From: Candidatus Bathyarchaeota archaeon
GTDB taxonomy: Archaea > Thermoproteota > Bathyarchaeia > Bathyarchaeales > Bathycorpusculaceae
Assembly: GCA_963806535.1 (NCBI GenBank)
Contig: CAWDYC010000004.1
Coordinates: forward strand, 352,001 to 416,000
Direction: 5' to 3'
Length of the DNA: 64,000 nt
Below the pieces are notes generated by a model. It ran no database searches and was not told where the DNA came from. It saw only the letters and a program-made list of their open reading frames with translations. A program made the position numbers and the translations under genes. This document shows positions 7,189-62,137 of this stretch, in pieces; positions within the stretch are counted from its first letter, which is position 1, and the number at the start of each line of letters is the position of its first letter.

Positions 7189-7329
7189 GTCAAAAAGTGT
7201 CTAATAACTAGTCGACAATATACGTCTTAACAGAGTCATTTAAACTGGTCTAACAATGGTCACATACAGTCGCAACCTGCAAACACTGCAAACCCTAAAT
7301 CAGAAAAGCAACCTAAAACACAAACAACA
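7189..7329 (-). repeat. Dispersed element copy A: 59-nt head ending TGCAGGTTGCG plus phased GAC repeats
   Basis: Reverse complement of 7271-7329 aligns without gaps to the heads at 16028, 61330, 61520 and 62017; GAC recurs 8 times at 10-13 nt spacing. Confidence 0.8.
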
Positions 7330-7406
7330 AAATTCGCTCAAAAATCAGAACAACAGCCCTCACACCTGCGAAAGACTTAAAGTGTGTTCCGTGCCTTTAG
7401 TTTTCG

Positions 7407-7724
7407 GCGGTGGATCTTAGGCGGTGGGGTAGGGGTCCATTGTACCGTAAACCCTCTATACGACGGGCTGACATCTGCGGATGAGGCGCCGAAGGCCGTT
7501 TGGATCTTCATTTCCGAAACATTGACTATCCGTCCTTTGGGGCTGGCGGTCAATGAGCAGCTTCCGTAGGGGAGTTGTTTCGTTGTTCTACCAGGCGAAC
7601 CCGGCTAGGCTCGGGAGAGAGCAACCTAAGTTTGGACGTTATGCGCTCAAGGGGGTGCGGGTAAGAGCGTAGGGCTTGAGGCTTTCAGGCGGAGTCTGGG
7701 CGTCAAACCGCAGTGGTCCACCGC
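7407..7724 (+). ncRNA. ffs: Archaeal signal recognition particle (7S) RNA
   Basis: GC-rich 318 nt; ends pair (GCGGTGGA / TCCACCGC); helix 6 GAGCAGCTTCC-GTAG-GGGAGTTGTTTC; helix 8 SRP54 motif CTAGGCTC-GGGA-GAGAGCAACC. Confidence 0.93.
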
Positions 7725-7803
7725 TACTAATTTTCCAATTTAACGTTGAACTCAAAAACGATTATTGAAACATCAAATAGAATTAACTAACTTATACCAA
7801 CTA

Positions 7804-8072
7804 TTAAATTATTTTTGAGAAGTCATCATAAACATTTTTTCGATGCCCGATAAAAATAATGACCACTTCTTTTTTCTCTCTGTCAATCTCATAAATAGTC
7901 CTGTGATCATCTCTCCTTAAACTCCAAAAGTTTGAAGAATGCAGATGTTTCCCAACTTTAATGGGTCAACAGCAAGTTCTCCAAGCGCCGCCTTAATTCG
8001 CACTTTATCTGGGGTATCAAGTTTTTGCAGTGCCTTAGCAACCTTAGGATGCAAAAGTACTTTAAAGGTCAT
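7804..8072 (-). CDS. RelE/ParE family toxin (one frameshift near 7960)
   Basis: MTFKVLLHPKVAKALQKLD..RIKAALGELAVDP / GKHL..FWSLRRDDHRTIYEID..VVIIFIGHRKNVYD; absent from the ORF track. Confidence 0.8.
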
Positions 8073-8083
8073 TTAAGCTTCCT

Positions 8084-8290
8084 CTAAAAGAATACGCTTA
8101 TCGGATGTTCTTTGTTTTCTTGGCTTCTCTTGAGGAGCATTTGGTAGAACTTGCGCGTTTCTTCTCGTTCTTCATACAAACTTATTATAGTTTTTATAGC
8201 GTCGCTTCTGCTCTTGAATTTGCCTTCTGCTACCCACCGGTCAATCTCTTCCACCGTTTTTTCGGGTAATCTAAGCTGAACTTGAGCCAT
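8084..8290 (-). CDS. CopG/ribbon-helix-helix antitoxin
   Basis: MAQVQLRLPE..EIDRWVAEGKFKSRSDAIK RHH signature; directly upstream of the toxin; 3' end probably frameshifted. Confidence 0.8.
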   Translation of the reverse strand: MAQVQLRLPEKTVEEIDRWVAEGKFKSRSDAIKTIISLYEEREETRKFYQMLLKRSQENKEHPISVFF

Positions 8291-8351
8291 AATATTCACT
8301 GTAAACAATACTGTTTACTTTAACACTCAAATCCCTTCAAAAAACTTGAAA

Positions 8352-8882
8352 TTACTTGGACTCGTCGAGGCTTTTCTTGTAGAGGGCCTTGTCGATTACT
8401 CTTACATCTAGATTTTGTTTGGCCGCTGTTTTCCTGATTGCCTCCAGAAGTTTTAGGTAGTTTTGAGATGTTAGCATGTTTGGTGGAGGATTGCCCAGCA
8501 GGGCTTTCCATGTTGCAGCGTCAAGAATGGCATATTGTTTGGGGTCAAAAAACGCTAGGATAACGCTGGCTAAAACAGGGTTTATGCCTTCTAAGCAGCG
8601 TAAGGCAATTCATTCGGTAGCCATCTTCGCAAGAAGGAATGCTCAAGGCTTGGCTTGAAAGTCGATTAACCGTTGCCTCCTCATTTCGGGAAACTAAGTC
8701 TAAAACCCGAGTTTTCTTCTCTGGTTCATCTTTAAACTTCCATTCAACAACCTGCGCCAAATCGGCCTTTGTTAACACTTTAGCTCTTCGGAATTTAGCG
8801 CCCAACTCTCGTTCCTTCTGCGCCTGCCAACCAAGCTTTTTTCGTATTTGCGGCTCCACATCAAAAAAGCAGCTTTATCCAC
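8352..8882 (-). CDS. HhH-GPD-like (DNA glycosylase fold) protein with about 3 frameshifts
   Basis: Reconstructed MDKAAFLMWSRKYEK..LTKADLAQVVEWKF..LTLLEGINPVLASVILAFFDPKQYAILD..YLKLLEAIR..VRVIDKALY. Confidence 0.65.
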
Positions 8883-8969
8883 ACAATTCAACCTTACAAT
8901 GCATAATTGAGAACTGGATACATTTTTGCCTTTGCCTAAAAATCATGGAAACAAATAGAAAATAATGGG

Positions 8970-9095
8970 TTAGTTTTGGTCTACCAGATGCGCTGTTCCG
9001 TCAGGACAATATACTTTCTCATCTTTGTTTACTCGCCTGTAGCGTTCACTGCACATGTGCAGCAGGCTGCAGCCGTCGCAATCTCTACTCAGCAT
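8970..9095 (-). CDS. 41-aa Cys/His-rich microprotein (putative zinc finger)
   Basis: MLSRDCDGCSLLHMCSERYRRVNKDEKVYCPDGTAHLVDQN with strong AGGAGG Shine-Dalgarno upstream. Confidence 0.7.
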   Translation of the reverse strand: MLSRDCDGCSLLHMCSERYRRVNKDEKVYCPDGTAHLVDQN

Positions 9096-9186
9096 ATTTT
9101 TTTCGCCTCCTTGTTAGGTCTTTTTGCATGGGTGAATTTTGCTTATAAGACTATGTAACATGCATGTGTATACGTAGGTAAACACG

Positions 9187-9312
9187 TTAGCGACCCTTTT
9201 TATGTGCCAAACATGTTTTGTAGGCTATGCAGTCTTCCGAGCAGGGAGCGGCTGTTTTGGTTTGGCAATCCAAGACAATGGTTCTGTACATGCTTAAGTC
9301 GCCTTGCCCCAT
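9187..9312 (-). CDS. Four-Cys microprotein (41 aa, or 34 aa from ATG 9291)
   Basis: MGQGDLSMYRTIVLDCQTKTAAPCSEDCIAYKTCLAHKKGR; tandem with the previous microprotein. Confidence 0.5.
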   Translation of the reverse strand: MGQGDLSMYRTIVLDCQTKTAAPCSEDCIAYKTCLAHKKGR

Positions 9313-9651
9313 TTTGCTCTTAGAGGATGCGTAACGCGGGAATGGCTATACCAAATAAACTTGAAGGGTAAAGCAACTAAACCTGCACAAACCATTCTTG
9401 GTAATGCTAAATCCAACATGCCGATTTCGCCTTTGTTGTTTTGCTCTGAACTAAATATGTTTACTTTTAGGATATAAAGCGATTTGAGAAATGTTCATAA
9501 TTATTATTAAAAAGTGTGCAAACATCAAAAAATCACATAAGAATTACAATAACTGAATGATATAGTAACAAAAACATGACAAAAGATTTACACTCATTCA
9601 GAAAGATGAATAATTATGTAGTTCAATAATAATACATTACAAGATGATCCT

Positions 9652-9987
9652 TTGAGTTGCAACCAAGAAAATAAACAAAAAACAAATAGCTTCTACTTTC
9701 AAGAAATCGACCAAATAATTGTTTTTCAAAGCTGTGGAAAACAAGGTAAATATGTAACATACAAAATACAACTAAAAAGCAAGGAAAAAGCAAAGCATAT
9801 TGGAGACTTAGTAGTTCTTGGCGAGTTTTTAGAAAGTGAAAAAGTAGATCGTAATTATCCGCTTACTGTGGGTTACTATAAGGATTTTTCAGGAGAGGGA
9901 GCAAACTTTAAGCCTGAGTACTTGGAGTTGCGAAAAATTCGTTTTATTGAAGAATTTTGGCTTTTCCTTAATGCTTGTGATGTCTAA
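9652..9987 (+). CDS. Hypothetical protein
   Basis: 111-aa AT-rich ORF, no motif recognised. Confidence 0.5.
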   Translation: MSCNQENKQKTNSFYFQEIDQIIVFQSCGKQGKYVTYKIQLKSKEKAKHIGDLVVLGEFLESEKVDRNYPLTVGYYKDFSGEGANFKPEYLELRKIRFIEEFWLFLNACDV

Positions 9988-10069
9988 TTGTTGTTGCTTT
10001 GAAATTACATTTTTATTTTCTATTAAAAATCTAAAAAACGTTATGAAGGAAGTTGCCGAAAAAGGCATT

Positions 10070-10582
10070 CTAAACTTTACCCTCGACCCGAACTATAGGT
10101 TTGCCCATAATATCTCGCATTGTAGCCGCTACTTCAAATGGTTTACGAACGAACAACAGCTTAGTCTCGCGTTCACCTTGAGAGTTAACCGTTATATCTC
10201 CATAGCCGAAGATTCTGCCGCCAATCGACTGGTCTACCAATAAATCGCCAAATCCCGATGGCGTAACAACGAAAGAATGCAACCTAATGATACCTTGGCG
10301 AATTTCTAATCCATCCTGCCGCAGCACATACGAGTGAGAAAGTCGAAAAATCAATAATTCTAACAGGCTAACTAGCCAAATAATGATAAAGGCCACCACG
10401 GTCCAGGCAAAAATCGGTAAACCAATCAAATGCGAATAGGCTATGCCTGAGTAAATTTCAAGCCAGACAAATATTATTAGAAAAACAAAAACAGTGATTG
10501 TTCGTAAAATGGCTGCTGGTACAATCCACGGCTTTCCAGACCAAACCACACTGCCCTGACCAACGTGTTTATCAGAAGACAA
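10070..10582 (-). CDS. PH domain (bPH_2-like) membrane protein
   Basis: Two TM helices then Y.L....LEIRQGII and VDQSIGGRIFGYGDITV. Confidence 0.75.
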   Translation of the reverse strand: MSSDKHVGQGSVVWSGKPWIVPAAILRTITVFVFLIIFVWLEIYSGIAYSHLIGLPIFAWTVVAFIIIWLVSLLELLIFRLSHSYVLRQDGLEIRQGIIRLHSFVVTPSGFGDLLVDQSIGGRIFGYGDITVNSQGERETKLLFVRKPFEVAATMRDIMGKPIVRVEGKV

Positions 10583-10704
10583 CTAAAACACAACCATTAG
10601 GCAATAAGCAAAAAAACCTATTTAAGCATTCAGCCCTAAGACGCCGAACACGCGAGTCCTACAGTTTAAGAAAATAGATGGGCGAAGTTGTTTAAAAGAA
10701 AACT

Positions 10705-11019
10705 TTACACCATAGGCCGATGCAATAATGCTCCTTCAATAGAGCGTAACAGTTGATAGCCGAAAAGTATTGCTGTGAAATAAGTCGGCCACAAAATCAC
10801 TGGCCAATTTCCAGGAGTATAAGACCAAAGACCGTTAGATACAGCAAAAAATTCCATAAGTGCTAAAGCAATCATTCCGCTGGTAGCAAGAAACAATTGC
10901 TCTTTCACTTCTCGTTTGGCTGATCCTTTGCGGCGGACAAAAGTAAGTACTGCCCACGCTGCAAGGAAGCCAAAAAAAAGCACGTACCAACTTGAATTGT
11001 AATCAAATAATATGTTCAT
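10705..11019 (-). CDS. Small integral membrane protein
   Basis: Three hydrophobic helices, EFFAVSNGLWSY motif. Confidence 0.65.
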   Translation of the reverse strand: MNILFDYNSSWYVLFFGFLAAWAVLTFVRRKGSAKREVKEQLFLATSGMIALALMEFFAVSNGLWSYTPGNWPVILWPTYFTAILFGYQLLRSIEGALLHRPMV

Positions 11020-11057
11020 GCTGAGGACAGCGTGTCTTCACTATAAAAATGATTTGA

Positions 11058-11715
11058 TTAATGAGTCGCTTTTTTCTGTTGATTCTTCTGAGGTTTATGG
11101 GCTGACCAGCATTTTCGGCAATACACAGGTCGGTCGGCATGAGGTTGAAAAGGCACTTCACATTCACAACCGCAATCACTGCAAACGACTTTGTAAACGG
11201 TTTCTTCATGGAACTGCTCAAATAAATTATAATTTTTCAGACGTGGCCATCCAGTTTTTGCGTACCGGAGCATTTCAGGTTTATCTTTTAGCCAACGCAT
11301 CATATGGAAAAAGCTTTTACCCCTTTTTTCTTCACGTTCAGCTAATGGTTCGTAGCCTAAATTGCGGATTTCGTCTAAGTAAGCGATTTCCACTAATCTC
11401 TGTGCTTCGCCGACCACTCTTACACGTTTAACCCGGTCTTCACCGTAGACTTTGCGGAGTTCCTCAGCGGCAACATCAAAGATGCAGCCTTGGCAAATGT
11501 GAATTGCTTCGTCTGGTTTGAGATTGAAGTACGAGACTAGTTTAGAGACGACGCGTGAGGATTCTTTGCAGGTATTCTTTTTCTCGGAAAATTTCTTGAT
11601 AGAATCTTACGTCTATGAGGTCATATTTGAATTCGCCTGTTTCTTCTCGGTAAGCGCCAACTACAACGCCATAAAGTAAGTCGCCGCTGCCTGCGTCATC
11701 AACAATAACTGTCAA
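11058..11715 (-). CDS. RNase HII-like protein fused to a C-terminal CxxC-x17-CxxC zinc finger (one frameshift near 11570)
   Basis: N-terminus MTVIVDDAGSGDLLYGVVVGAY resembles the RNase HII DEAGRG motif; KTGW near the end of the domain; CSDCG..VPFQP..RPVYCRKC tail. Confidence 0.65.
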
Positions 11716-11829
11716 CTAATAATGTTCCTTCTGTTGTTTCCTCAATTGAATGCTTATTTCGGCTATAAAAATAGTCCTCTCAAAAATGAAAATAACTGAA
11801 GGCTCTTGCATTATTTTATGAGGCTGTTG

Positions 11830-12465
11830 CTATTGCTGTTTTATAGTTTCGGCAGGGGTTTGTTTAGGAGTTAGAACTCCTTTTTTGCCAAGACGCAGTT
11901 GCCTCTCGCCCCTGAAAACACAAACATGAGCATTCTTAATTTCGATATTTTCTCCAACTGTAATCGAGTTGATTTGTCCTTCCCAGAGACAAAGCTTGAT
12001 TTTTCCTGTGTCATCTTGAACCAAAGCGTTGACTACCATGACAGTGTTGCCAAATTGTGTGTGAACCTGAACTGGCTTAGGAATCTCAAGAACCTCTGCC
12101 TTAACATTTACTCGTTTCATACCTGCTCTCAAAGCATTAACTGCTGTGAAAACTGATTCAGTATTTTGTTTGGCGATTTTCTTGGTTATTTTATCAGTGC
12201 TCATCCAGCTTTCAAAAGGATTGTCTTTTCTCAACAGAAATTGTTCATCAACTCTGAATTGAGCAACAGCATGATTCTCTTTCTTTATCAGAAAAATAAT
12301 TTCATCCTTAACTTTGCCGCGGTATTCAACCTCAAGAGTGCCGCAGACGGCTGTTTCATTGTTTCTTGCTTTTATTAGCGCTTGAAAAACTTCAGAGGGG
12401 TAAATGTTATGTTTTACTGAAAGAAGCGCAATGTGTTCCCCTAAAGTTGATTTTTTCTGTCTCAA
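11830..12465 (-). CDS. OB-fold single-stranded nucleic-acid binding protein with an N-terminal extra domain
   Basis: LRAGMKRVNVKAEVLEI..VQDDTGKIKLCLW..GENIEIKNAHV..FRGERQLRLGK (SSB/RPA OB fold). Confidence 0.85.
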   Translation of the reverse strand: MRQKKSTLGEHIALLSVKHNIYPSEVFQALIKARNNETAVCGTLEVEYRGKVKDEIIFLIKKENHAVAQFRVDEQFLLRKDNPFESWMSTDKITKKIAKQNTESVFTAVNALRAGMKRVNVKAEVLEIPKPVQVHTQFGNTVMVVNALVQDDTGKIKLCLWEGQINSITVGENIEIKNAHVCVFRGERQLRLGKKGVLTPKQTPAETIKQQ

Positions 12466-14591: not shown

Positions 14592-14671
14592 CTCTTATCC
14601 TCACGCTTATGATATAACCAGTTTTGAAGCGGGATTCTAAACCGGCTGATCATAATCAAGAGAGGTCTAGA

Positions 14672-16001: not shown

Positions 16002-16170
16002 AGTTATTGACGATTTTTGGCAGGGGCTGTTCTTTGTGTTTTAGGTTGCTTTTTTGAAGCAAAGCTTAAATTCTATGCAGGTTGCGTGTGCATTTGTGTG
16101 GATTTGTGCTGAAATGTGTCGAATTGTGGCAAAATGTGTTGAAACGTGTGATTCTGTGTGGAACTATGTA
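16002..16170 (+). repeat. Dispersed element copy B: head plus eight GTG repeats at exact 10-bp phase
   Basis: Head 16028-16086; decamers gttgcGTGtg catttGTGtg gatttGTGct gaaatGTGtc gaattGTGgc aaaatGTGtt gaaacGTGtg attctGTGtg. Confidence 0.85.
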
Positions 16171-16187
16171 AACAAAAGTGAGTCACC

Positions 16188-16466
16188 ATGCCTTTAACTC
16201 AAAGAGTTTCCTTCAAAAACATTCTAACCAAGACCAATCTGATACAGGTTCCAAAATTGGTACGGTGGCAGTTTAAGCTGGAGCCCTCTGAAATTCTAAA
16301 AATCACTGTCGCCATAAAGGATCGATTGGGTGTAAAGGAAAGCTTTCTTGGAAAAATGCACAAAGACGGAAGAATAACTATTCCACAACTAACCCTTGCC
16401 CTACTAAAACAATATGAACCCAATCTTGAAGGCTTAGTCTTAGAAATTACCCTAGAACCCACATAA
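16188..16466 (+). CDS. Tandem AbrB/SpoVT (MraZ-like) DNA-binding protein
   Basis: Two AbrB-like units: TNLIQVPKLVRWQFKLEPSEILKITV and HKDGRITIPQ..LEGLVLEITL. Confidence 0.75.
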   Translation: MPLTQRVSFKNILTKTNLIQVPKLVRWQFKLEPSEILKITVAIKDRLGVKESFLGKMHKDGRITIPQLTLALLKQYEPNLEGLVLEITLEPT

Positions 16467-17666: not shown

Positions 17667-18089
17667 CTACTGCATAAGTGTCTTGCTGGATAAGGTTTTT
17701 ATTCCCAAGTTTTCTGCAGCTTTGGCAAGTTTACTGTCGTCGCTGACTAAGATCTTGCCAGATTTCTTTGCCTCTACAAGATAAGCTGCGTCATAAAATG
17801 TCAAGTTAAATTTGTACGCTGTGTTCAATACTTCGTATCCTGTCTCATTATCAAGTGAAGCTACCTGCATACGTTCAAGAATAGAGTACATCAGATCTAA
17901 TGATTTTTGTGCCTCTTCAATATTTATTCTTTTAAGCAAAAGACATTCTCTCCACAACGCATTGCCCAGCTCATAGTATGCTAAATAAATCGTTGTTCCG
18001 CTAACTAGTTTTTCCACAGCGTCTTGTGGCTGTTCCCTAATGAGCTTGTATATGATGTTGGAGTCAAACAGTAACTGCGGCTGTATCAT
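17667..18089 (-). CDS. vapC: PIN-domain VapC toxin
   Basis: LFDSN, YYELGNALW, LTFYDAAYL, LVSDDSKL. Confidence 0.9.
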   Translation of the reverse strand: MIQPQLLFDSNIIYKLIREQPQDAVEKLVSGTTIYLAYYELGNALWRECLLLKRINIEEAQKSLDLMYSILERMQVASLDNETGYEVLNTAYKFNLTFYDAAYLVEAKKSGKILVSDDSKLAKAAENLGIKTLSSKTLMQ

Positions 18090-18316
18090 CTGCTGTCCCT
18101 TGTAGTGCGAATGGATTGGGTAAATTCTTCAGGTGGAATCTTTTTTAGAATTTCTGATACCTCTTTAGCAAGTTTGTTTAGTTGTTCTTTTTCCAATCGG
18201 TCTACTTCGGATTGCAAGGTTTCTCTTATTAGCTCGCTTACATTTACGCCTAAACTGGATAACTTTTTCTTGAGTTCAGCTGGAACTTTTGCGCAAACAG
18301 TTTCTTCCATCGCCAT
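18086..18316 (-). CDS. VapB-type antitoxin
   Basis: ETVCAKVPAELKKKLSSLGVNVSELIRETL RHH pattern; ATGA overlap with vapC. Confidence 0.85.
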   Translation of the reverse strand: MAMEETVCAKVPAELKKKLSSLGVNVSELIRETLQSEVDRLEKEQLNKLAKEVSEILKKIPPEEFTQSIRTTRDSR

Positions 18317-18455
18317 AGGTATTACCAATGTAGTATAACAAATCTGTATGATAAGAAGATTACTACTATCCCCAAATCTAACTAGAAATCGTAGAGATGG
18401 GGATGGAAATTAAAACATGAACAAGTATACGCTGATTCCTGAGTTAATCAATGAA

Positions 18456-19812
18456 CTCAAGCTCTACGTTTATGGCTACCTCAACCAGGTAAGATCCAGC
18501 AGGAAGCTCTAGAAAGAATGCCACCGTAACGTTGAGGCCATGTGGCTAATGAAAAAGTTGGCGCCAGACCACAAGACCATCGCTGACTTCAGAAAAGACA
18601 ACGTAGACTGCATCAAACCAGTTTTCAAAGAATTCGTTTACCTCTGCAAAAGCCTCGATCTATACGGCGCTCAACTCGTCGCCATAGACGGGACCAAATT
18701 CAAAGCTGTAAACTCAAGAAGCAACAACCTCAATGAGAAAATCGTCGCTTTGAGGCTCAAACAAACAGAGGAAAAGATAGCAGAGTATCTTAAAGAAATG
18801 GACAAGAACGATGCAAACGATTCAGAACAAGGAGAAGACTCGGCCGCTGAAGCGCTTAAGGAAAAGATAAGCCGACTAGAAGAAAAAAAGCAACAATATG
18901 GGCAAATTCAGTCTCAGATGAAGGCTACGGGCCAAAGCGAGGTTTCTCTTGTGGACCCTGATAGCCGTCTGATGAGAGTGAATAGTCAACTTCTTGAAGT
19001 CAGCTATAACATTCAAACATCTGTTGATGCCAAGCAGCATCTCATTGTTGATTATGATGTGATAAATAACTCAACTGACCATCATCAACTTACTAAGGAT
19101 GCGTTGGCAGCAAAGCAGACTTTAGGTGTTGAGACACTTGAGGTTTTGAGTGACAAGGGATTCTATGTTGAAAAAGACGTCTCAGATTGCGAGAATAATG
19201 GTATTACAGTCTTCATGCCTATACCTGCCGTTTTGAGCCCTTACAAGAGTTTGGGTGTTCCAGCGCCTGAGTTCTACAGCGACAGATTTGCTTATGATGC
19301 TGCTAAGAACGTGTATGTTTGTCCTGCAGGCGAAGAGTTGAAGTTTTGTAAGCGCGTGTACAGAGATGAGCCTTTGCGAGGCAGGGTTTACAGGACTGCT
19401 AGTTGCGCTGTCTGTGTTTTTAGGAGCAATTGTACGAGGAACAAACGTGGACGGACTATGGTTAGGTCTGAGTATGATGGTGCAGTTGAGCGTCTAAGGG
19501 TTAGGTTGAAGGGTCTTGATGGGCGAGATAAGCTTCGTTTGAGGCGGATGCTAGTGGAGCATCCGTTTGGGACCATGAAGCGGGCTTTCAATCAGGGATA
19601 TTTGCTCATGAAGGGTCTTAGGAAGGTTAAGGGCGAGGTTGGATTTACTATGCTTGCTTACAACATGCGACGGGCTATCAATATTCTTGGAGTTGGTTTG
19701 CTGATGGGCTTGATTAAGGCGTAGAAAAGAGAAAACAAGTAATAATAATCGTTGGCAAGAGCTTGAGTTCCAGATATTCTTAGGCTTTAACTCTGAGTTT
19801 TGACACAGTCTG
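18456..19812 (+). mobile_element. IS1182-family element, 5'-truncated; transposase has an in-frame TAG at 18510 (intact stretch 18540-19724)
   Basis: LKLYVYGYLNQVRSSRKL, WLMKKLAPDHKTIADFR, IDGTKFKA, DPDSRLM, YNIQ, DKGFY, YVCPAG, VEHPFGTMK, AYNMRR; right end GAGTTTTGACACAGTCT (19795-19811). Confidence 0.9.
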
Positions 19813-20765: not shown

Positions 20766-21470
20766 TTATGGGTAGTGTGGAATGTAATAGTTTGTTTTTT
20801 TGCCTATCCAGTCGCCAAGGAAGTAGCCAACGATGTAACAGGGAATCATAGTTAATAATGCAAGAGCGCCATCGCCAATGATTCCTTTCAGCCACGCACT
20901 TACGCCTGTCATGTTCAAGGCAACCGTTAAGCCACCCCATATGATGAATCCTCCTGTTAAGAGTCCGACAAGCAGATACAGCGCTTTGTTGAGTTTTAGT
21001 AACCCTTCAGCTGAGAGTATTTCTTTTTTTATGTGCGTAATCATGTAGCCGATTCCAATGAATGCAAAAATTCCGAGAGCAAGATTGTAAAACGTAGTCG
21101 CGCCGATATAGCCTATGAAGTACAAAGCTATATTGATGGCTAAGTAAATGGGTGTAACGATGGCTTCCGCTACCCAGAATTTTCGCCACCATGCAGGTTT
21201 CTTCTTAAGGTTGTTGTCCTCTGGGAACTCCGAAAGCAATCTGGAAGCAAGTTTACCCTTTTCTGTCAGTACGTATTTTTCCTCTTCGTTTTTCGATAAG
21301 AGGTCACCTAGAACCTTGAGGTGATAATTCAGAAGTCCTGTGCTGACAACTTCCAAGCTATCCAAGAGTTCGGTGTAGGTTAGGCTGCTTTTCTCGTTTA
21401 GCAGTAGTATGATTTGTCTTCTCGTTTCATCTTTTAGAATTTTATGCAGGGAAGTTAAACCTGTGTTCAT
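20766..21470 (-). CDS. Membrane-tethered ArsR-like winged-helix regulator (family I)
   Basis: ILKDETRRQII..LTYTELL..STGLLNYHLKVL..YVLTEKG followed by 4 TM helices. Confidence 0.85.
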   Translation of the reverse strand: MNTGLTSLHKILKDETRRQIILLLNEKSSLTYTELLDSLEVVSTGLLNYHLKVLGDLLSKNEEEKYVLTEKGKLASRLLSEFPEDNNLKKKPAWWRKFWVAEAIVTPIYLAINIALYFIGYIGATTFYNLALGIFAFIGIGYMITHIKKEILSAEGLLKLNKALYLLVGLLTGGFIIWGGLTVALNMTGVSAWLKGIIGDGALALLTMIPCYIVGYFLGDWIGKKTNYYIPHYP

Positions 21471-26979: not shown

Positions 26980-27657
26980 TTAAACTCTCAGCATTGGAAT
27001 AACATAGTTTCTTTTTTTGCCTATCAAGTCCCCTACCCATCCGCCCAAAATCCAGCAAATAATCAAAGTTGCAGCCGCAACAAAGTCGTCACCCAAATTG
27101 CCGGTTGCACCTTGGATTTGCCAGCGAAGCCCGCTATGAAGTATCAGCAGGGTTATTATCCCCCAGAAGACAAAACCAAGGCAGAAAGCTCCAACTGCAA
27201 TAAAGAAAACCCTATTCCCAGACCGTGAAGGTCTAACTCTAATGTAGAAGGCAAAGCCAAAAGTCAGTATTGATACAATAACGACAAGAACTGTCCTCTC
27301 TAGTGGTATATTCAATGCAAAGCCAGTTACTAGAGTTAATATGACTGAAGCTACCCCAAAGAATAGCATCATTTTGAGAACTCTTCTATCTGTTACTTGA
27401 GTCTGTGTGGTTGGGAACTCTGTTAATATCCTATAAGCGAGTTGGCCTTTTTCATTGAGTACGTACTTTTCTGTCTCGTCCTTTTCCAAAAGGTCGCCTA
27501 AAACCTTCAAATGATAATTCATTGTTCCAGTGCTTACAATACCCAAGCTTTGCATCAGTTCAGTATATGACAAATTACCTTTGTCATTCAGCTTTAGGAT
27601 AATTTTTCGTCTGGTTTCATCCTTGAGAATTTTGTGCAGTGAGTCTATAGCTGACAT
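26980..27657 (-). CDS. Membrane-tethered ArsR-like winged-helix regulator (family I)
   Basis: SLHKILKDETRRKII..STGTMNYHLKVLGDLL plus 4 TM; paralog of 20766. Confidence 0.85.
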   Translation of the reverse strand: MSAIDSLHKILKDETRRKIILKLNDKGNLSYTELMQSLGIVSTGTMNYHLKVLGDLLEKDETEKYVLNEKGQLAYRILTEFPTTQTQVTDRRVLKMMLFFGVASVILTLVTGFALNIPLERTVLVVIVSILTFGFAFYIRVRPSRSGNRVFFIAVGAFCLGFVFWGIITLLILHSGLRWQIQGATGNLGDDFVAAATLIICWILGGWVGDLIGKKRNYVIPMLRV

Positions 27658-28804: not shown

Positions 28805-29539
28805 TTAAACAGTGCTTAATCGCTTGATCAATTCTATTTTTTGGAAGCCTCTTCTTTTGCCAAGCAAATATCCAGAAATTCCGCCAGTTAAGGGTGCTAC
28901 CACGAAAGCTATAACTAAAAACCAGGAGCCCCAAATGCCAGTCAAAAGAGAGGACTTATTTAAGAACTTAGCCAGACCCACAATTAGTAAACCGCCACCG
29001 AAGAATGTGATCATACCGCCTGCCCAGGCTCCAATCATAGTGTACGTAGTTCTCATAAGCAATCGCTCTTTATCTGAACCGTGTGGAAGTCGTATTCCTT
29101 GTGCTCTATTAGCAAAATAAGTTAAAGTCATTCCTACAGCTACTGTAATTAACCCTTGAAATAACGCTAAAAAATTCATGAATCTCAAAAAATAAAGACA
29201 TAAGATGCTGATGAGAATAACTACTTGACCGAAACCAGCAGTTATCCAGAATTGGCGATATTTTGAATGTGAATTATCTACGTCTGGGAACTCTGATAAT
29301 AGTCGCCACGCCAATTTTCCTTTTTCTGTTAAAACGTATTCCCCATTCTCTTTTTTTGCAATCAGGTCGTGCATAATTTTTAAGTGATAATTCAATCTTC
29401 CTGTACTGTCAATTTTTAGTATATTCATCAAATCAGTATAGCTTAAACTGTCGTTTTCACTTAGCGCTATTATAATTTTTTTCCGCATTTGATCTTTCAA
29501 AGCTTTGTACAACGAGGTGAATCCGAGTTCAGATGCCAT
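28805..29539 (-). CDS. Membrane-tethered ArsR-like winged-helix regulator (family I)
   Basis: SLYKALKDQMRKKII..STGRLNYHLKIM..YVLTEKG plus 4 TM. Confidence 0.85.
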   Translation of the reverse strand: MASELGFTSLYKALKDQMRKKIIIALSENDSLSYTDLMNILKIDSTGRLNYHLKIMHDLIAKKENGEYVLTEKGKLAWRLLSEFPDVDNSHSKYRQFWITAGFGQVVILISILCLYFLRFMNFLALFQGLITVAVGMTLTYFANRAQGIRLPHGSDKERLLMRTTYTMIGAWAGGMITFFGGGLLIVGLAKFLNKSSLLTGIWGSWFLVIAFVVAPLTGGISGYLLGKRRGFQKIELIKRLSTV

Positions 29540-38671: not shown

Positions 38672-38674
38672 GCG

Positions 38675-44609: not shown

Positions 44610-44697
44610 GTTCTCTGTATTTTTTAGTCGCTTTTTTGTTTTAGAGCTTGAATCGTTTGCAGGTTGCGGTTTTAAAAGGTTTGGAAAGGTCTAAGGT
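44610..44697 (+). repeat. Dispersed element copy C: head plus GGT repeats
   Basis: ..TTTGCAGGTTGC-GGT tttaaaaGGT ttggaaaGGT ctaaGGT. Confidence 0.75.
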
Positions 44698-44929
44698 TAC
44701 CGCTAAATCAAATATTATAAACAAAACCGCATCACAGAAAACGAGATCGCCTCCAAATAGCCAAGCTAATTCAGTATTAAATACACGATAGAGCCGACAG
44801 AGGTTTTGAAAGTTCGTGCGCTAGCAAGTATGCAGAAATTTAATAAGAGCACGTCTGCACTTAGCACTAACTAAATGGTTTATTTCCGCTAGCGATAGCT
44901 TAGCCTGTAAAGATGTGAGGACCAAAAAC

Positions 44930-56367: not shown

Positions 56368-59300
56368 ATGCATAAAGGACGTAATTGCCAGGAAGACAAA
56401 CCTCAAATAATTGAAGCAACTTCAAATTTTTTAGTTGATTCTGCAGGTCTTGGCAAAAAGGATCGTCTGCACATTTTACATGTCGATGATGATCTTTGCT
56501 TTCTGGAAGTTTCAAAACAAATACTTACGACAGAGAATAATTTGGAAATTTATAACGCCACATCTGTCAATGAAGCCTTGAAGAAAATGGAAAAGCAGAC
56601 TTACGATGCGATTGTTTCGGACTATGAAATGCCTCTGAGGACTGGATTAGACTTTTTGAAAGAACTAAGAGACCAGCAGCGTGATATTCCATTTATCTTG
56701 TTTACTGGAAAAGGCAGGGAAGATGTTGCAGTTAAAGCCTTGAATTTGGGTGCTGACCGGTACGTGAACAAAAACGGTTCTCCAGAAACAATCTACTGCG
56801 AATTAGCCGATGCAATAATCAAAACCGTAGAGCGCAAGAAATCAAAACAGTTGCTTGTTTCTTCAGAGTCAAAGTATCGTACGCTGGTGGAGAATTCGCT
56901 TCAAGGTATACTAGTTACGACAGCATCTCCTCTCAGGTGTGTTTTTGCTAATGGTGCCATGGGAAAAATCTTGGGCTATTCTCCTAAAGAGTTAATGTCA
57001 CTTTCGCCCCAAGGAATATCGAGCTTGGTTTACGAGGCGGATAAGGCTGTTTTCTTTGATCGCTTGGAAAAACGTTTTCGGGGTGAACCGGCAGAGTCTT
57101 CTTTGGAGTTTCGTGCAGTGCGCAAGGACGGCTCGATAACTTGGGTAAGTGGCTTCTCGAACCAAGTGGATTATGACGGACAGCCGGCTGTGCAAGGAAT
57201 GTTCTTGGATGTTAATGAAAACAAGAAAACTGGAGAGATTATTCTTGAAAGCGAGAAGAGGTACAGGGAATTGGCAGATTCTTTGCCTAACATTGTTTTT
57301 GAGACTGACATAAATGGGCAAATTGTATTTGCAAATAGAATTGCAGTTGAAATTGGCGGATATTCCCAGAATGAGCTTAAAAAAGGTATACATTTTGTTC
57401 AATTTCTTTCCCACGAAGACAGAGAAATGGCAATAAATAAATTCAAACAATTACTATCGGGAGAGCCCCGCATTAATGTTGAGTTCACGTTTGTTCAAAG
57501 AAATGCCGTTACTTTTCCTGCCCTCATCATTGCAGCGCCTATTACTTGTCAAAGCAAAGTGACTGGGATAAGAGGACTGATTATAGATATTTCTGAGCGA
57601 AAGAAAGCCGAAGAGGCAATTAAACTTTCAGAAGAAAAGTATCGCGGTCTTTTTGAAAATGCATCTGATGTTATCCTAACGGGAGATTTATCTGGAAAAG
57701 TAACCTCGATAAACACCGCTATTAAAAAATATGGTTTTATAAAAGAACAAGTTGTTGGGAGAAATGTGCGTGAGTTTCTCTCAATTAAAGATGTCGCACG
57801 TCAGGACCAAATCTTTCAAAAGGTAAGCTCGGGAAATTCGGTTTCTGGAGAAGTTGAAGCATCATTTGTTCTTGGAAAAAGGATTTTTGAAGTTAAGACT
57901 GACCCGTTAAAGATCGGCGATGAGGTTGTGGGTTTCCAAACGATTCTAAGAGATGCAACTGAACGAAAGGAGGCGGAAGAAAAAATAAGAGAATCGGAAG
58001 AAAAATACAGAGATATTTTCGAGAACGCACGGGACGCTATTTACGTTCATGACCTGAAAGGAAGAATAGTCTCTATAAACAAAGTTGTTGAAGAATACGG
58101 CTTTACACGAGACCAACTTATCGGAAAGAACATGCTAAACTTTGTCCCCAAGAAATACTGGCCAAAACTAATTGCGAATCTTTCTGAGTTAGCTCAAGGA
58201 AAGCAGGTCGAAGGTGAAATCTACGTAAATACCCCTATCGGAAAAAGAATTGCAGAGTACCGAAGCAACCCAGTAATACGAGGCGATAAAGTCATTGGCG
58301 TTCACAGTGTTCTGCGAGATACCACAGAAAGGAAGAAAATTGAAGGTGCTTTGATTGAAAGTCAACAGAAATTCAAAGCATTGTTTTCTGCGAATCCTGA
58401 GGCTGCGGCGTTTCTAGATACCAATTTTCGCGTGGTTGAGGCCAATTCTCGGTTCAGTGTGCTTTTTGGGTATTCCTTTTATGAAATTAAAGGTAAAACT
58501 ATCGATCTCATTGTGCCTGATGAAGCAACAGAAGAGTCCCAAAGCATTCGTCATAAAATCATTCTTGGACCAGTTGAAGTTGTTGCTCTTCGAAAGAAAA
58601 AAGATGGTTCTCAATTCCCGTTATTCCTGTCAGGGGGGCCAGTTGTAGTTGATGGAAAAACAATCGGCTGCATAGTGGTTTATAAAGACATCTCTAGCAT
58701 TGTCACAGCTCAGGAAGAACTGAGTAGCGCGTTAGCGAAGGCTGAGGCGCTCAATGAAAAGTTAAACGTTGTAGGCGGCTTTACTAGGCATGACGTGCGA
58801 AATAAATTGCAAGCGATTAATGGGAACTTATACCTAGCAGAGAAATACGTCGGGGAAAACCCACAGGTGAAAAAGTGTTTAGATCAAATTAAAACAGCCG
58901 TGAGTAACACCGCTCGCTTACTTGACTTTGCAAAGGACTACGAAATGTTAGGAAGCCAAGAGCGGGTAACCCTTGATGTGGGAAAAGCAGTCAATGACGC
59001 TGCATCCTTATTTGCGGATTTGAAAGGCATAGAAATTGTAAATGAATGCGGCGGATACAAGGTATTGGCTGATTCCATGCTTACTACAATTTTCCACAAC
59101 CTGATTGACAACTCGTTGAAGTATGGTCAAAAACTTACGCAAATAAAAATAAGCATTCACCAGAACCAAAAGAAATCAGAAAGCATTGTCTATGAAGATG
59201 ATGGAGTAGGAATTGACGCAGAGAGAAAGAAGCAGCTTTTCACAAGAGGTTTTGGAATGGGAACAGGTTTAGGTTTGTACCTTATCAAGCGAACCTGCGA

Positions 59301-59391
59301 CATTTACGGGTGGACCATACAAGAAGAAGGCAAACCAGGGAAAGGAGCACAATTTGTATTTACATTGCCAACAAAACAAGACGAAGAATGA
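56368..59391 (+). CDS. Hybrid sensor histidine kinase: REC, 5 PAS, HisKA, HATPase
   Basis: LHVDDD/SDYEMP; five PAS starts; TRHDVRNKL; NLIDNSLKYG, YEDDGVGI, GTGLGL. Confidence 0.95.
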   Translation: MHKGRNCQEDKPQIIEATSNFLVDSAGLGKKDRLHILHVDDDLCFLEVSKQILTTENNLEIYNATSVNEALKKMEKQTYDAIVSDYEMPLRTGLDFLKELRDQQRDIPFILFTGKGREDVAVKALNLGADRYVNKNGSPETIYCELADAIIKTVERKKSKQLLVSSESKYRTLVENSLQGILVTTASPLRCVFANGAMGKILGYSPKELMSLSPQGISSLVYEADKAVFFDRLEKRFRGEPAESSLEFRAVRKDGSITWVSGFSNQVDYDGQPAVQGMFLDVNENKKTGEIILESEKRYRELADSLPNIVFETDINGQIVFANRIAVEIGGYSQNELKKGIHFVQFLSHEDREMAINKFKQLLSGEPRINVEFTFVQRNAVTFPALIIAAPITCQSKVTGIRGLIIDISERKKAEEAIKLSEEKYRGLFENASDVILTGDLSGKVTSINTAIKKYGFIKEQVVGRNVREFLSIKDVARQDQIFQKVSSGNSVSGEVEASFVLGKRIFEVKTDPLKIGDEVVGFQTILRDATERKEAEEKIRESEEKYRDIFENARDAIYVHDLKGRIVSINKVVEEYGFTRDQLIGKNMLNFVPKKYWPKLIANLSELAQGKQVEGEIYVNTPIGKRIAEYRSNPVIRGDKVIGVHSVLRDTTERKKIEGALIESQQKFKALFSANPEAAAFLDTNFRVVEANSRFSVLFGYSFYEIKGKTIDLIVPDEATEESQSIRHKIILGPVEVVALRKKKDGSQFPLFLSGGPVVVDGKTIGCIVVYKDISSIVTAQEELSSALAKAEALNEKLNVVGGFTRHDVRNKLQAINGNLYLAEKYVGENPQVKKCLDQIKTAVSNTARLLDFAKDYEMLGSQERVTLDVGKAVNDAASLFADLKGIEIVNECGGYKVLADSMLTTIFHNLIDNSLKYGQKLTQIKISIHQNQKKSESIVYEDDGVGIDAERKKQLFTRGFGMGTGLGLYLIKRTCDIYGWTIQEEGKPGKGAQFVFTLPTKQDEE

Positions 59392-59420
59392 GGAGTAATT
59401 GCTCGAAAGATGGTTTCAGT

Positions 59421-60593
59421 CTAGTGTTTCGCGTAGTAGTCTGCTACAGCCCAGAAAGATTCCTTTGGCTCCCATGTCATGTCGGAATATGTTTCTCCGT
59501 GCTCACCGAGCTTACCCGTAAATTTGGCTAACGTTTCGGGAGCTAGATTTACACCCACGAATTCCTTTCCCTGTCTTGCGCTCTGAGATATTATCTTTTC
59601 AAACGTGTCCTTCTCCGGGTAGCTTTTTACCAAGCCATAGCTGCCCATGTCCATGTCGAATCTGGGGTCTTCGTTATAGGTTGAAGTTGGAGAGACAAAT
59701 GTGAAAACGAAAGCACCCTCAACGCCTGCAGTATCCAGTATAGTGAGTTGTTCAATAATTTCCCGTGCCTGCAAACTCTCGTCTCGAACATAATGACCAT
59801 TAACCTTCGGGATAATCTTAACCATGTCACTAAGTGCCTTGGGCAGATCTACGCTTGAGCCGAGATAATCAGCCATCATACCAAACACAATAATGAAACC
59901 GTTCCCACCAAGCTTCTCTGCTCCTTGATAGGTGCAACAACCGAATTCCCCAATCATGACAGGTTTGTTGTACACATGGTATTTGCTGACCAATTTATCG
60001 TACAAATCTTTGATTCGAGCATCTCGATAGAGGTCAACGCCAACAAAGTCAAAAGGTGTCCAGTTGACCGTTTCAAGCGGAACTGAAAAGTATGTAAGTG
60101 GACCATGAAATACCTCTCTGACTGCTTTGTTTGCTTTTGTTAGGAATGCGTTAAGTGGCTCGTTGTGCTTGCCAGATTTGATGGTTTCCCAGAACGCGGG
60201 ATTGTTCATCCGCTCAAAGAAATTAGCGCCTTCAACTATATCCTGCATAAATAGCGTTAACTCTGAACCAAGGCTGAACACAAGCTTTCCAGGCCATCGC
60301 TGTCTCAAGCTTTCTGCAGCTATAGCGGCTTTTGTGATATATTGAAGCGTTTCTTCTTGGCTTCTGTCCCACATCTCTGGTGAGAACCACACTTCCAATC
60401 CCTGAGTAAGTGCGTCTTGGCTAGCAATTATTAGCCTTTCAATGTCGAGACCGCAAATTCTCACGGCATTACAATGTAAGTCATTTCTGATTATTTCAAG
60501 TTCTCGATGCACAACTTTGGGATCGAATTTAGGTCGCCATTCACTTCCCATCATCACGCGCCCAACATCGTAACAAACGCCTTTTAGATTCAT
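59421..60593 (-). CDS. TIM-barrel glycoside-hydrolase-like protein (family often annotated abortive infection protein)
   Basis: KGVCYDVG, RELEIIRNDLHCNAVRICG, GSELTLF, VGVDLYRD, IGEFGCCTYQGA. Confidence 0.7.
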   Translation of the reverse strand: MNLKGVCYDVGRVMMGSEWRPKFDPKVVHRELEIIRNDLHCNAVRICGLDIERLIIASQDALTQGLEVWFSPEMWDRSQEETLQYITKAAIAAESLRQRWPGKLVFSLGSELTLFMQDIVEGANFFERMNNPAFWETIKSGKHNEPLNAFLTKANKAVREVFHGPLTYFSVPLETVNWTPFDFVGVDLYRDARIKDLYDKLVSKYHVYNKPVMIGEFGCCTYQGAEKLGGNGFIIVFGMMADYLGSSVDLPKALSDMVKIIPKVNGHYVRDESLQAREIIEQLTILDTAGVEGAFVFTFVSPTSTYNEDPRFDMDMGSYGLVKSYPEKDTFEKIISQSARQGKEFVGVNLAPETLAKFTGKLGEHGETYSDMTWEPKESFWAVADYYAKH

Positions 60594-61211
60594 TTAACTC
60601 ACTCCCTGGGTGTCTGGTTTGAGCATCCGCAGGATAATTTTTGTATCAGGAAAATGCTTTTTGTAATCTGCTGGGTCAAGCATAGATGCTCTTTTCATCA
60701 AGCCATCAAAACAGGCTAAGAGAGCAACCATCAACTGGTCAGGGTCATCCTTTGCAATCTCACCAGTAGCCTGCCCTTCAACGATTAGCTTCCGAATAAT
60801 ATCTTGAATAACCTTACCATTTCTCAGAACAAACTGCTTAAGATCATGCGGCGTTGAGTCGTCGGTCAAAACCTGATGCATTAACTGTGAATATCCAGGG
60901 TTTTCGCGTCTGTCTTCTAAAATGTATGAAATTAAAAGCGTTAGACGCATTCCGGGTGTACCTTGGATTTGCTCTATGCGAGCTGCTGGTCCGCTCCCTG
61001 ACTCTGTTACCTGTTTTATCAGGATAGAAAAGATTTCCTCTTTACTGGCGAAATAGTGGTATGCTAATCCTTGGCTAATTCCTGCCTCGGCTGCTATTTC
61101 AGCCATTGTCGCAGCTCGACCTTTTGTTGCAAAGACCGTTCTGGCCGCCTCTAAGATTTTCTTGGTTGTTTCTTTTCTAATTTGTTCGTTCTTTTGTTCG
61201 CTTTTTGGCAT
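60594..61211 (-). CDS. TetR/AcrR family transcriptional regulator
   Basis: KILEAARTVFATKG..ATMAEIAAEAGISQGLAYHYFASKEEI. Confidence 0.93.
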   Translation of the reverse strand: MPKSEQKNEQIRKETTKKILEAARTVFATKGRAATMAEIAAEAGISQGLAYHYFASKEEIFSILIKQVTESGSGPAARIEQIQGTPGMRLTLLISYILEDRRENPGYSQLMHQVLTDDSTPHDLKQFVLRNGKVIQDIIRKLIVEGQATGEIAKDDPDQLMVALLACFDGLMKRASMLDPADYKKHFPDTKIILRMLKPDTQGVS

Positions 61212-61232
61212 TTCAAAGTGCCCCTTTTGTAT

Positions 61233-61251
61233 ATTGAATAAACTATTCAAT
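61233..61251. promoter_or_regulatory. Putative TetR operator
   Basis: Perfect inverted repeat ATTGAATA-AAC-TATTCAAT about 22 nt upstream of the tetR ATG. Confidence 0.7.
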
Positions 61252-61303
61252 CAACTAATAAATATTCTCCAATAGGCACTCTTCTTGCGTCCCTAAACGA
61301 TCA

Positions 61304-61450
61304 AGTTATTGACGGTTTTTGTACAGCTTTTTTCTTTGTGTTTTAAGTTGCTTTCTTGGTTTAGGCTTTGTTTTGTTTGCAGGTTGCGTCTTTAAATGTA
61401 GGAAAATGTAGGGATCTGTAAGAATCTGTAAAAAAATGTAAGAAAAAGGC
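61304..61450 (+). repeat. Dispersed element copy D: head plus GTA repeats at 10-bp phase
   Basis: aggttgcGTC tttaaatGTA ggaaaatGTA gggatctGTA agaatctGTA aaaaaatGTA; shares upstream AGTTATTGACG with copy B. Confidence 0.85.
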
Positions 61451-61519
61451 AGAAATAAGTTGGCGTAAACTTTCAAGAAGTGACGCTTAGCGTTTCTACT
61501 GCATTTTCTTACGCAAATT

Positions 61520-61660
61520 TGTTCTTTGTGTTTCAGTTTGTATTCTTGGTTTAGGGTTTGGGTTAGTTGCAGGACGCGTCACTATAAGTCACTATAAGTC
61601 ATAGGAAGTCACCAAAAGTCACTACGCGTCATAAAAAGTCACAGAAAGTCACAAAAAGAC
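61520..61660 (+). repeat. Dispersed element copy E: head plus GTC repeats at 10-bp phase
   Basis: aggacgcGTC actataaGTC actataaGTC ataggaaGTC accaaaaGTC actacgcGTC ataaaaaGTC acagaaaGTC. Confidence 0.88.
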
Positions 61661-61708
61661 CCTCCCCAGCTCTTAAGTCTTGAAAATCTTCACTGTGCCT
61701 TACAAGAA

Positions 61709-61900
61709 TTATTTTGAATCTCGGTCAGATTCGCCCCAATACAAATCCTGCAGCTCAACAGTGCTAAGCTGCTTATCTGCGTCCACTTTAAGTTCCGTTC
61801 CGCAGTTAGGGCACTGAATGGTTTCGCCAGGCTGAGCATACAGCAAAAAATCTGGTTTATTAGAAAAATCAAACCCACACTCAGGACACTTCTCACCCAT
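61709..61900 (-). CDS. LysW-like double-CxxC zinc-ribbon protein
   Basis: CPECG..GETIQCPNCGTELKV..ELQDLYWGE then SDRDSK; GAGGGG upstream. Confidence 0.7.
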   Translation of the reverse strand: MGEKCPECGFDFSNKPDFLLYAQPGETIQCPNCGTELKVDADKQLSTVELQDLYWGESDRDSK

Positions 61901-62016
61901 GCACTACCCCTCGAAATCCAATTAAGACCACATATGCAACAAACACAAATCACTTTAATTCAATAAATAATTTTGCCCATCATCGGTGAGACACGAGTTT
62001 TGTTTTTTATGCAATT

Positions 62017-62137
62017 TGTCCTTTGCGTTTTGGACTGCTTTTTTGGTTCAGGGTTTGTTGCGTTTGCAGGTTGCGTCTTTATCTGCAAGAAAACGCAAAT
62101 AAACGCAAGAATCTGCAAAAAAACGCAAGAAAAAGCG
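62017..62137 (+). repeat. Dispersed element copy F: head plus GCA repeats at 10-bp phase
   Basis: ttgcGTCttt atctGCAaga aaacGCAaat aaacGCAaga atctGCAaaa aaacGCAaga. Confidence 0.85.

Follow-up and report, generated by a model that had tools for sequence, protein, structure and literature searches.

The question raised by this locus is what kind of element joins an almost constant DNA segment to a repeat array that changes from copy to copy, and which protein might read it. The stretch analysed here (hereafter the window, 64,000 nucleotides in full) corresponds to positions 352001-416000 of contig C4 in a 2.95-Mb, 12-contig Bathyarchaeia genome (G000) with a GC content of 40%, and six such units were recognised in it, each composed of a head of about 60 nt followed by an array of short boxes. 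The original prediction, made from the sequence of the window, described a modular element with a constant head and a copy-specific array, which is supported by the present analysis, and proposed that the arrays are read by paralogous AbrB-like proteins. The reading of paralogue-specific arrays by AbrB-like proteins, with bacterial MraZ as the working model, is the best-supported interpretation. On balance, the head, the array and a linked gene encoding a 92-amino-acid (92-aa) protein would constitute a self-regulated promoter-operator cassette of a Bathyarchaeia-specific PhS018-like protein family related to AbrB and MraZ.

All six heads are found where they had been placed (7271-7329 on the minus strand, and 16028-16086, 44610-44668, 61330-61388, 61520-61578 and 62017-62075 on the plus strand). 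The head profile and genome scan proposed along with the original prediction were carried out with an nhmmer profile built from 70 genome copies, which at a threshold of E<1e-3 recovers exactly these six heads in the window (C4 positions 359271, 368086, 396668, 413388, 413578 and 414075; E 1.5e-9 to 5.7e-15) and 108 heads in the 2.95-Mb genome. The earlier description of a six-copy element is to be enlarged: the family numbers at least 108 copies, and their cores fall into a dozen classes or more. A simple pattern search gives a similar picture: the 14-mer GTTTGCAGGTTGCG, which forms the 3′ end of the head, occurs 50 times in the genome with at most one mismatch, compared to a single occurrence of a backwards-read control. 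With at most two mismatches it matches five of the six window heads, while the head at 61520 has four mismatches and is recovered by the profile only. Read from 5′ to 3′, conservation starts with a weak GTTATTGAC about 35 nt upstream, continues with the block TTGTTCTTTGTGTTTTrGGTTGCTTTTTTG and, after a less conserved interval, ends with GTTTGCAGGTTGCG.

The arrays follow a strict 10-bp lattice. Base identity within arrays is 0.539 at a lag of 10 and 0.485 at a lag of 20, compared to 0.305 and 0.325 at lags of 9 and 11 and about 0.31 in shuffles, and among the lags of 5 to 16 tested, 10 is the best one in 97 of the 108 arrays but in only 57 of 1000 random genomic 80-mers. The concern that the phasing would disappear as more copies were considered was thus not borne out. 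With the terminal G of the head taken as phase 0, that phase holds a G in 74% of units, phase 1 holds a T in 59%, and A prevails at phases 6-8. The G maximum falls on phase 0 in 87/108 arrays, i.e., the register is shared with the last G of the head, and the arrays are indeed anchored on that base as had been proposed. The array is a lattice of a G, two to four variable bases and a spacer, in register with the head; its 10-bp period places all boxes, of which there are 3-11 per array, on one face of the DNA. The triplets first noted in the six window units (GAC, GTG, GGT, GTA, GTC and GCA) read as described, and genome-wide the core classes comprise GTCA(C/T), GTCAA, GTCT/GTCC, GGTC, GTAC, a GTAT/GAAC mix, (T/C/G)G(T/C/G)AAG, GTGAA, GCA(A/C), GAC(T/A), (C)GTT, (T)GTG and GTCTC, a table of regular expressions assigning 76 of the 108 arrays to a class and leaving 32 over. 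An argument that inverted arrays (GACT, CGTT and TTGACA with a T-rich spacer, as reverse complements of A-spacer classes) prove that the array is read as double-stranded DNA was dropped, because all classes keep the G at phase 0 and GTCAA versus GACAT serves just as well to describe the pair L075 and L076.

The link to one paralogous protein family is a major aspect of the element. A protein profile compared with the six-frame translation of the genome identifies nine loci of the 92-aa family, six uninterrupted and three broken, and a head and array directly precede every one of them. Scanning one genome per species gave 56 loci; two of these, L081 (a near-duplicate of L080) and L094 (20 residues), were left out, so that 60 genes were examined, six from this genome and 54 from others. 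A head lies upstream at E<=3e-4 in 55 of these 60 genes from Bathyarchaeia metagenome-assembled genomes (MAGs) and at E 0.6 in one more; the remaining four are without a head, yet they have GTC repeats spaced by 10 bp. The homologous loci come from soil, peat and bog MAGs. The head is kept among proteins that share just 40-65% identity, and within a protein clade the core is retained while spacers and unit number vary. Among 24 sampled congeners, which as kin are not independent, the 15 with a match to the protein together contain 181 copies of the head 14-mer (control 16), and the nine without one contain 10 (control 6), a level near background; the count per congener is patchy and ranges from 0 to 51. 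Three loci with head, array and gene of the Bathyarchaeia type (L065, L066 and L073) lie on contigs assigned to bacterial MAGs (Acidoferrum, Cytophagales), probably through mis-binning.

The 92-aa protein is, by model and structure comparison, a PhS018-like cradle-loop barrel of the RIFT/AbrB-related type, predicted to be built from a single chain. Its AlphaFold model (predicted local distance difference test, pLDDT, 90.3) consists of two beta-beta-alpha-beta halves, with the order of elements E-E-H-E occurring twice. A profile of 44 sequences run against the PDB finds one chain below E 0.01, namely 2glw, the 92-aa PhS018 of Pyrococcus horikoshii (E 0.005). The same structure is the top match of both structural aligners, with a template-modelling (TM) score of 0.71 and E 2.7e-4 in Foldseek and, in a wide VIA search, Z 11.5 and a root-mean-square deviation of 2.3 Å over 84 aligned residues; the VIA search then gives 2d9r at Z 9.4 and generic RIFT-type barrels at Z<7. 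Sequence identity to PhS018 is just 17-18%, despite the equal length and the internally duplicated barrel common to both. PhS018 is described in an excerpt of PMC4333400 as an uncharacterised protein intermediate between swapped-hairpin and double-psi barrels, with predicted DNA binding like that of AbrB-type proteins, and in an excerpt of PMC11258233 as a RIFT protein of high two-fold symmetry. The large protein collection searched holds 873 relatives at E<=0.001; among the 120 matches listed, none has a Pfam domain, most are named hypothetical, and a few JGI records bear AbrB/PrlF- or MraZ-type names. The term AbrB-like therefore holds in a loose sense, through the closest structure and these few names, but finds no Pfam match behind it: at E<=10, the only Pfam hit among all six members is TMP_3 (E 0.033, one member), with neither PF04014 nor the MraZ family, and no NCBIfam family matches the protein.

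Protein clade and array core go together. On a 44-row protein tree, rows with the same core group together, with Shimodaira-Hasegawa-like approximate likelihood ratio test (SH-aLRT) values of 97 for GTCAA (12 rows), 94 for the GWAY mix (4 rows), 98 for GGTC (2 rows), 90 for TGTG (2 rows) and 91 for GTAC (3 rows, a fourth not resolving). The comparison of cores with residues of the adjacent paralogue, also proposed initially, shows that the residues preceding an invariant Q-[VI]-P-K vary with the class: C-N-K in GTCAA, Q-N-R in GTAC and GWAY, R-D-R in GGTC, and x-N-L in TGTG and TTGTM. The sister proteins L075 and L076 are 73% identical and have cores that differ at lattice position 1, GTCAA and GACAT. 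Because array and gene are linked, the correlation between residues and cores is confounded by descent. Still, core and phase persist within a clade at a divergence expected to scramble free intergenic DNA, which argues for constraint.

The closest parallel to this anatomy is found in bacteria. According to an excerpt of PMC12957436, MraZ boxes consist of GTG(G/T) followed by six spacer nucleotides and are present in 3-4 copies upstream of mraZ in the dcw operon; transcription starts inside box 1, and MraZ binds cooperatively via a cradle-like motif. The statement that the element matches no repeat class was therefore too strong, since a 4-nt core with six spacer bases is what that excerpt (PMC12957436) reports for MraZ. 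In both cases, a small regulator with two cradle-type half-domains per chain (here according to the model) is preceded by direct repeats of a 4-nt core that starts with G and recurs every 10 bp, directly upstream of the regulator's own gene, so that the element may by analogy be considered an iterated-box autoregulator, a variant of the MraZ kind. The transcription start in the first box and the cooperative binding are features of MraZ that would apply here by extension. There are differences as well. No sequence family is shared, and in the structural comparison 9sz7_K (MraZ on its four-box promoter) has Foldseek rank 46 with a TM score of 0.52 and E 0.18. The present system is archaeal, the division (dcw) genes are not adjacent, the neighbours in the window are unrelated and no neighbour family recurs. 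There are 3-11 boxes per array (3-4 for MraZ), a single genome has a dozen or more core classes whereas MraZ has one conserved box, the boxes come after a constant head of 60 nt, and about 100 gene-less copies exist per genome.

Other families of small repressors provide weaker parallels. AbrB, MazE and SpoVT are small beta-barrel DNA binders of the swapped-hairpin type that repress their own promoters; they are homodimers of one half-domain and bind less regular sites. A few homologues of the 92-aa protein are named after AbrB/PrlF, as said above, but PF04014 remains without a match and no member of this group is among the best 50 of the wide fold search. The heptads of the omega repressor and the ParR-parC system are likewise built of short repeats that adjoin one another and vary in number; a small repressor binds them cooperatively, both in front of its own gene and at further loci. 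The binders there are ribbon-helix-helix proteins, the units measure 7 bp or 10-11 bp, and these systems reside on plasmids with partition genes nearby. In contrast, par or rep genes do not recur among the neighbours of the 108 heads.

The MraZ parallel is what leads to reading head, array and gene as a self-repressed cassette. In such a cassette, the head would provide the constant part, with a B recognition element (BRE) and TATA consensus in its type A form, an oligo-T run and two strongly conserved blocks. The array, starting exactly at the last G of the head and close to the expected transcription start, would offer 3-11 boxes of an invariant G, two to four class-specific bases and a spacer at a 10-bp period, to which the protein encoded downstream would bind cooperatively and block RNA polymerase, as MraZ does on GTG(G/T) boxes. 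Monomers, each of them a pseudo-dimeric barrel, would line up along one DNA face from the start site on, each paralogue clade with its own core. The roughly 99 gene-less units, or orphans, would descend from such cassettes, through loss of the gene, duplication and recombination of one head with another, and may persist as landing pads for the resident paralogues, some controlling an adjacent gene and others acting as decoys.

The promoter part of this proposal can be compared with other promoters of the genome. The boxes before tRNA genes (e.g., aaacagCTTAAATt, aaaagCTAAATa and aaaCCTTAAATc) end about 24 nt before the mature 5′ end, and the gene for the signal recognition particle (SRP) RNA is preceded by a BRE/TATA-like AAAGACTTAAAGT at 7371-7383; tRNA and SRP RNA boxes are AAAG/C-CTTAAAT-like. 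The BRE/TATA consensus of the organism, AAAGCTTAAAT, is present in 28 of the 108 heads (type A), among them six of the nine gene-linked ones, and ends 14 nt before the end of the head; by spacing, transcription of type A units would start about 6-10 nt into the array. The head is accordingly probably more than the one shared protein site it had been taken for. Type B heads (61/108) have TTTAGGGTTTG in its place, with the centre of the motif about 25 nt ahead of the final G; its opposite strand reads CAAACCCTAAAT and resembles the promoter consensus directed away from the array. GTCAA-clade arrays, read upstream of position 1501 or 2019 of the locus, contain an internal AAGTTAAAATAAG unit that is BRE/TATA-like (L033, L053, L056-L058, L064-L066, L068, L069 and L079), and in this clade the gene promoter may lie inside the array.

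Several observations weigh against the self-regulated cassette. The 61 type B heads, which include those of intact GTCAA-clade genes, are without a canonical TATA box at the type A position, and the best-conserved head blocks differ from the TATA region; a promoter function thus accounts for only part of the conservation, and something else constrains the head. About 99 of the 108 units have no gene, a ratio of orphans to genes of about 11:1. With crude gene calls (greedy open reading frames, ORFs, of >=90 aa), the ORF downstream of an element is co-directional in 47 cases and convergent in 60, and for the last element of each cluster the counts are 36 and 40, where about 50% is expected; such random orientation indicates that orphans are not generally promoters of neighbouring genes, and the idea that the head drives the next gene was rejected as a general rule for this reason. 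Some orphan classes have no intact cognate gene in the genome (GTCAC/T with 11 copies, GAC with 7 and CGTT with 3), and the cluster beside a TetR gene at 61330-62137 has no counterpart in the congeners G020 and G016, in which no head lies beside the TetR orthologue. On the protein side, there is no Pfam family match, the function of PhS018 is not established, and AbrB, MazE and MraZ are absent from the best 50 of the wide VIA search. Finally, the match between clades and cores could in part be co-inheritance of linked DNA.

The history of the orphans is partly visible in their surroundings. The units form 77 clusters (54 single, 16 double, 6 triple and 1 quadruple), which are same-strand throughout. 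Several orphans retain remnants of a gene start, such as the stretch at 44696-44815, of which 44735-44813 is 81% identical to a region of the intact gene at C9 160761. Past 61449, a short piece of the start of the 92-aa gene survives at the TTGGCGTAAACT junction, which recurs at other copies. A regular expression for such remnants proved too loose (26/108 elements compared to 1085/5000 controls), and the figure of about 30 units with a remnant or gene is an estimate by eye. Duplication is also apparent: 61328-62122 matches C5 365172-365977 at 96.8%, further copies exist on C11, C8 and C6 at 88-92%, and the borders of these composite duplicates coincide with head starts and array ends. At the SRP RNA site, five loci from other MAGs (L058, L068, L069, L082 and L091) have a GTCAA-type gene-linked unit adjoining the SRP RNA, the gene of L091 being broken and its downstream RAM-domain gene common to the window. 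Compared with them, the window has kept the head, is missing about 1.2 kb including the gene, and has an array of a different class.

Beyond the cassette itself, a genome-wide address system made up of the PhS018-like paralogues together with some 100 head-array units is possible, though doubtful as a whole. In it, every clade would read a G and two to four bases on the 10-bp lattice via few variable residues, candidates being positions 59-68 and the positions 16-18 that precede the invariant Q-[VI]-P-K; gene-less units would be active, either as small RNA genes under the control of the cognate paralogue or as titration sites that set paralogue levels; and units would spread by recombination between heads. 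If true, this would give the PhS018 family a first function and provide a natural specificity-swap series for cradle-loop barrels.

A related proposal holds that orphans are a functional class under selection (operators of a regulon, decoy or titration sites, or roadblocks), with each paralogue addressing many loci, rather than relics of gene loss. Orphan heads score as high as gene-linked heads with nhmmer, and orphan arrays keep the G lattice: in 170 related orphan pairs, which are non-independent, phase 0 mismatches in 9% and the spacer phases 4, 5 and 7 in 29-32%; however, this pattern could stem from the homogenisation of tandem repeats instead. Orphans are numerous in classes whose intact gene is resident in the genome (NGNAAG 18, GWAY 7 and AGGTY 6), about 10 orphans sit 90-250 nt upstream of a co-directional unrelated ORF, and heads hardly exceed background in the nine sampled congeners without a match to the protein. 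Yet several classes have no intact cognate, orientation to neighbouring genes is unbiased, the single non-SRP site tested shows no synteny, and gene-start remnants as well as recent duplicates (88-97% identical) fit turnover. Selection on orphans as a class is an unlikely explanation.

A reading at the RNA level carries similarly little weight. In that case the head would be a promoter, the array would be transcribed, and the repeated G-NNN motifs would act in RNA, as a 5′ leader bound by the protein for translational autoregulation in gene-linked units, and in orphans as short non-coding RNAs or as sponges for the protein, with termination at the oligo-T runs of the head that follows. The transcription start predicted from the spacing of TATA-like motifs falls at or within the first box, so that most of the array would be transcribed; the single polarity of the arrays, with the G maximum at phase 0 in 87/108, suits strand-specific reading, orphans are self-contained and indifferent to their neighbours, and T-runs separate tandem units. 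However, a strict period of 10.0 without a shoulder at 9 or 11 is the signature of one DNA helix face, and arrays bound at the RNA level are not known to have this spacing. T5-T6 runs at the very start of some arrays (CGTT class) would stop archaeal RNA polymerase, and Rfam has no family match. MraZ, the nearest functional analogue, reads double-stranded DNA according to the excerpt of PMC12957436.

Improbable is a mobile or recombination element, whether a miniature inverted-repeat transposable element (MITE), an insertion sequence (IS) end, a cassette of the integron type that recombines at the head, or the iterons or centromere of an integrated plasmid. In favour of it, the copies are numerous, patchy among congeners (0-51 matches of the 14-mer) and non-syntenic, composite duplicates begin and end at head starts and array ends, a single 60-kb island with many toxin-antitoxin and helicase genes (G000:C10:1-60000; L097-L099) accounts for 21 of the 108 copies, a tRNA-like fragment lies beside unit 6 and a few units adjoin tRNA genes (a weak link, seen by eye). 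Against it, no terminal inverted repeats bound the four window regions that hold the six units, the genes within 2.5 kb of the 108 heads include no recurrent family of transposases, integrases, Rep or Par proteins, none of the six tyrosine integrase (PF00589) matches in the genome is within 6 kb of a head, the head pattern has no match in viral contigs (a plasmid collection was not searched), and the SRP RNA site is common to five other MAGs. The possibilities raised at the outset, that the head is an IS or MITE end and that the units lie close to integrases or tRNA genes, find no more support than this.

The self-regulated cassette, if correct, links a concrete DNA target to an uncharacterised archaeal PhS018-like family and extends the MraZ logic, in which each 10-bp box takes one barrel, to archaea. 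A recognition code could be derived from the dozen or more protein-core pairs that nature provides, and with about 100 gene-less copies per genome, the system may show how promoter-operator modules proliferate and act in an uncultured lineage that is abundant in soil and peat. A literature search found no description of the head-array element, nor of a function of PhS018.

Coordinates of the six units and the linked gene sequences in the window
Feature	Position	Strand	Evidence and remarks
Unit 1 head with weakly conserved upstream extension	7271-7344	-	nhmmer C4 359344-359271, E 3.5e-14; orphan, divergent from SRP RNA gene
Unit 1 array, GAC(T/C) cores, T-rich spacers, about 8 units	7183-7270	-	Sequence reading
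Unit 2 head, type A, with BRE/TATA-like AAAGCTTAAAT	16002-16086	+	nhmmer C4 368002-368086, E 5.7e-15
Unit 2 array, (T)GTG cores per 10 bp, 8-9 units	16087-16172	+	Sequence reading
92-aa PhS018-like barrel protein, presumed reader of unit 2 array	16188-16466	+	ORF, model, structure searches
Unit 3 head	44610-44668	+	nhmmer C4 396600-396668, E 7.6e-11
Unit 3 array, GGT(T/C) cores, 3 units	44669-44698	+	Sequence reading
Decayed remnant of 92-aa gene, begins TTACCGCTAAAT, in-frame stops	44696-44815	+	Sequence reading
Unit 4 head, type B, orphan, first in tandem pair	61330-61388	+	nhmmer C4 413303-413388, E 2.5e-13
Unit 4 array, (T)GTA(A/G)G cores, 5 units	61389-61449	+	Sequence reading
Unit 5 head, most diverged of the six	61520-61578	+	nhmmer C4 413499-413578, E 1.5e-9
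Unit 5 array, GTCA(C/T) cores, 8 units	61579-61658	+	Heads toward convergent 63-aa zinc-ribbon ORF
Unit 6 head	62017-62075	+	nhmmer C4 414001-414075, E 3.4e-12
Unit 6 array, (C/T)GCAA(G) cores, 5 units	62076-62137	+	Sequence reading

In the window, an intact gene follows unit 2, and its ORF begins 15 nt after the end of the array. No gene was found 3′ of the unit 1 array, where the protein profile has no match, and the next ORF beyond it is a convergent RAM-domain ORF (6731-7081). On the other side of unit 1 lies the divergent archaeal SRP RNA (7408-7723, plus strand), the only match (Archaea_SRP) of an Rfam scan of the window at the gathering score, with none for head or array.

Several neighbouring features deserve mention in their own right. 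The 63-aa zinc-ribbon ORF (61709-61900, minus strand) is LysW/ArgW-like but below the cut-off (29.8 versus 75 bits), and it sits within the composite repeat that recurs on C5, C11, C8 and C6 with 88-97% identity. At 62160-62205 on the minus strand, a stretch called by neither ARAGORN nor Rfam resembles a tRNA T-arm, acceptor stem and CCA, with about 92% identity over 24 nt to tRNA-Pro genes; it could be the remnant of an old attachment site. The C10 island contains PIN/MazE-type toxin-antitoxin pairs, an XPB helicase with DUF790, DUF559 and other helicases; as far as 45.8 kb every head lies on the minus strand, and those from 51 kb onward lie on the plus strand.

The interval 17670-19724, 1.2-2 kb 3′ of the 92-aa gene, holds a minus-strand toxin-antitoxin pair (PIN and CcdA-like) as well as a DDE transposase (18540-19724), an arrangement not repeated at the other units. 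Three paralogous DUF7347/ArsR-type helix-turn-helix proteins are encoded on the minus strand at 20769-21470, 26983-27657 and 28808-29539, between ORFs without a family match. At the start of the window, the TrpE gene that heads the trp operon (230-1685) consists of two ORFs, one with Anth_synt_I_N (230-835) and one with Chorismate_bind (1029-1685), the latter match beginning at profile position 56, which suggests a frameshift, a pseudogene or an assembly error.

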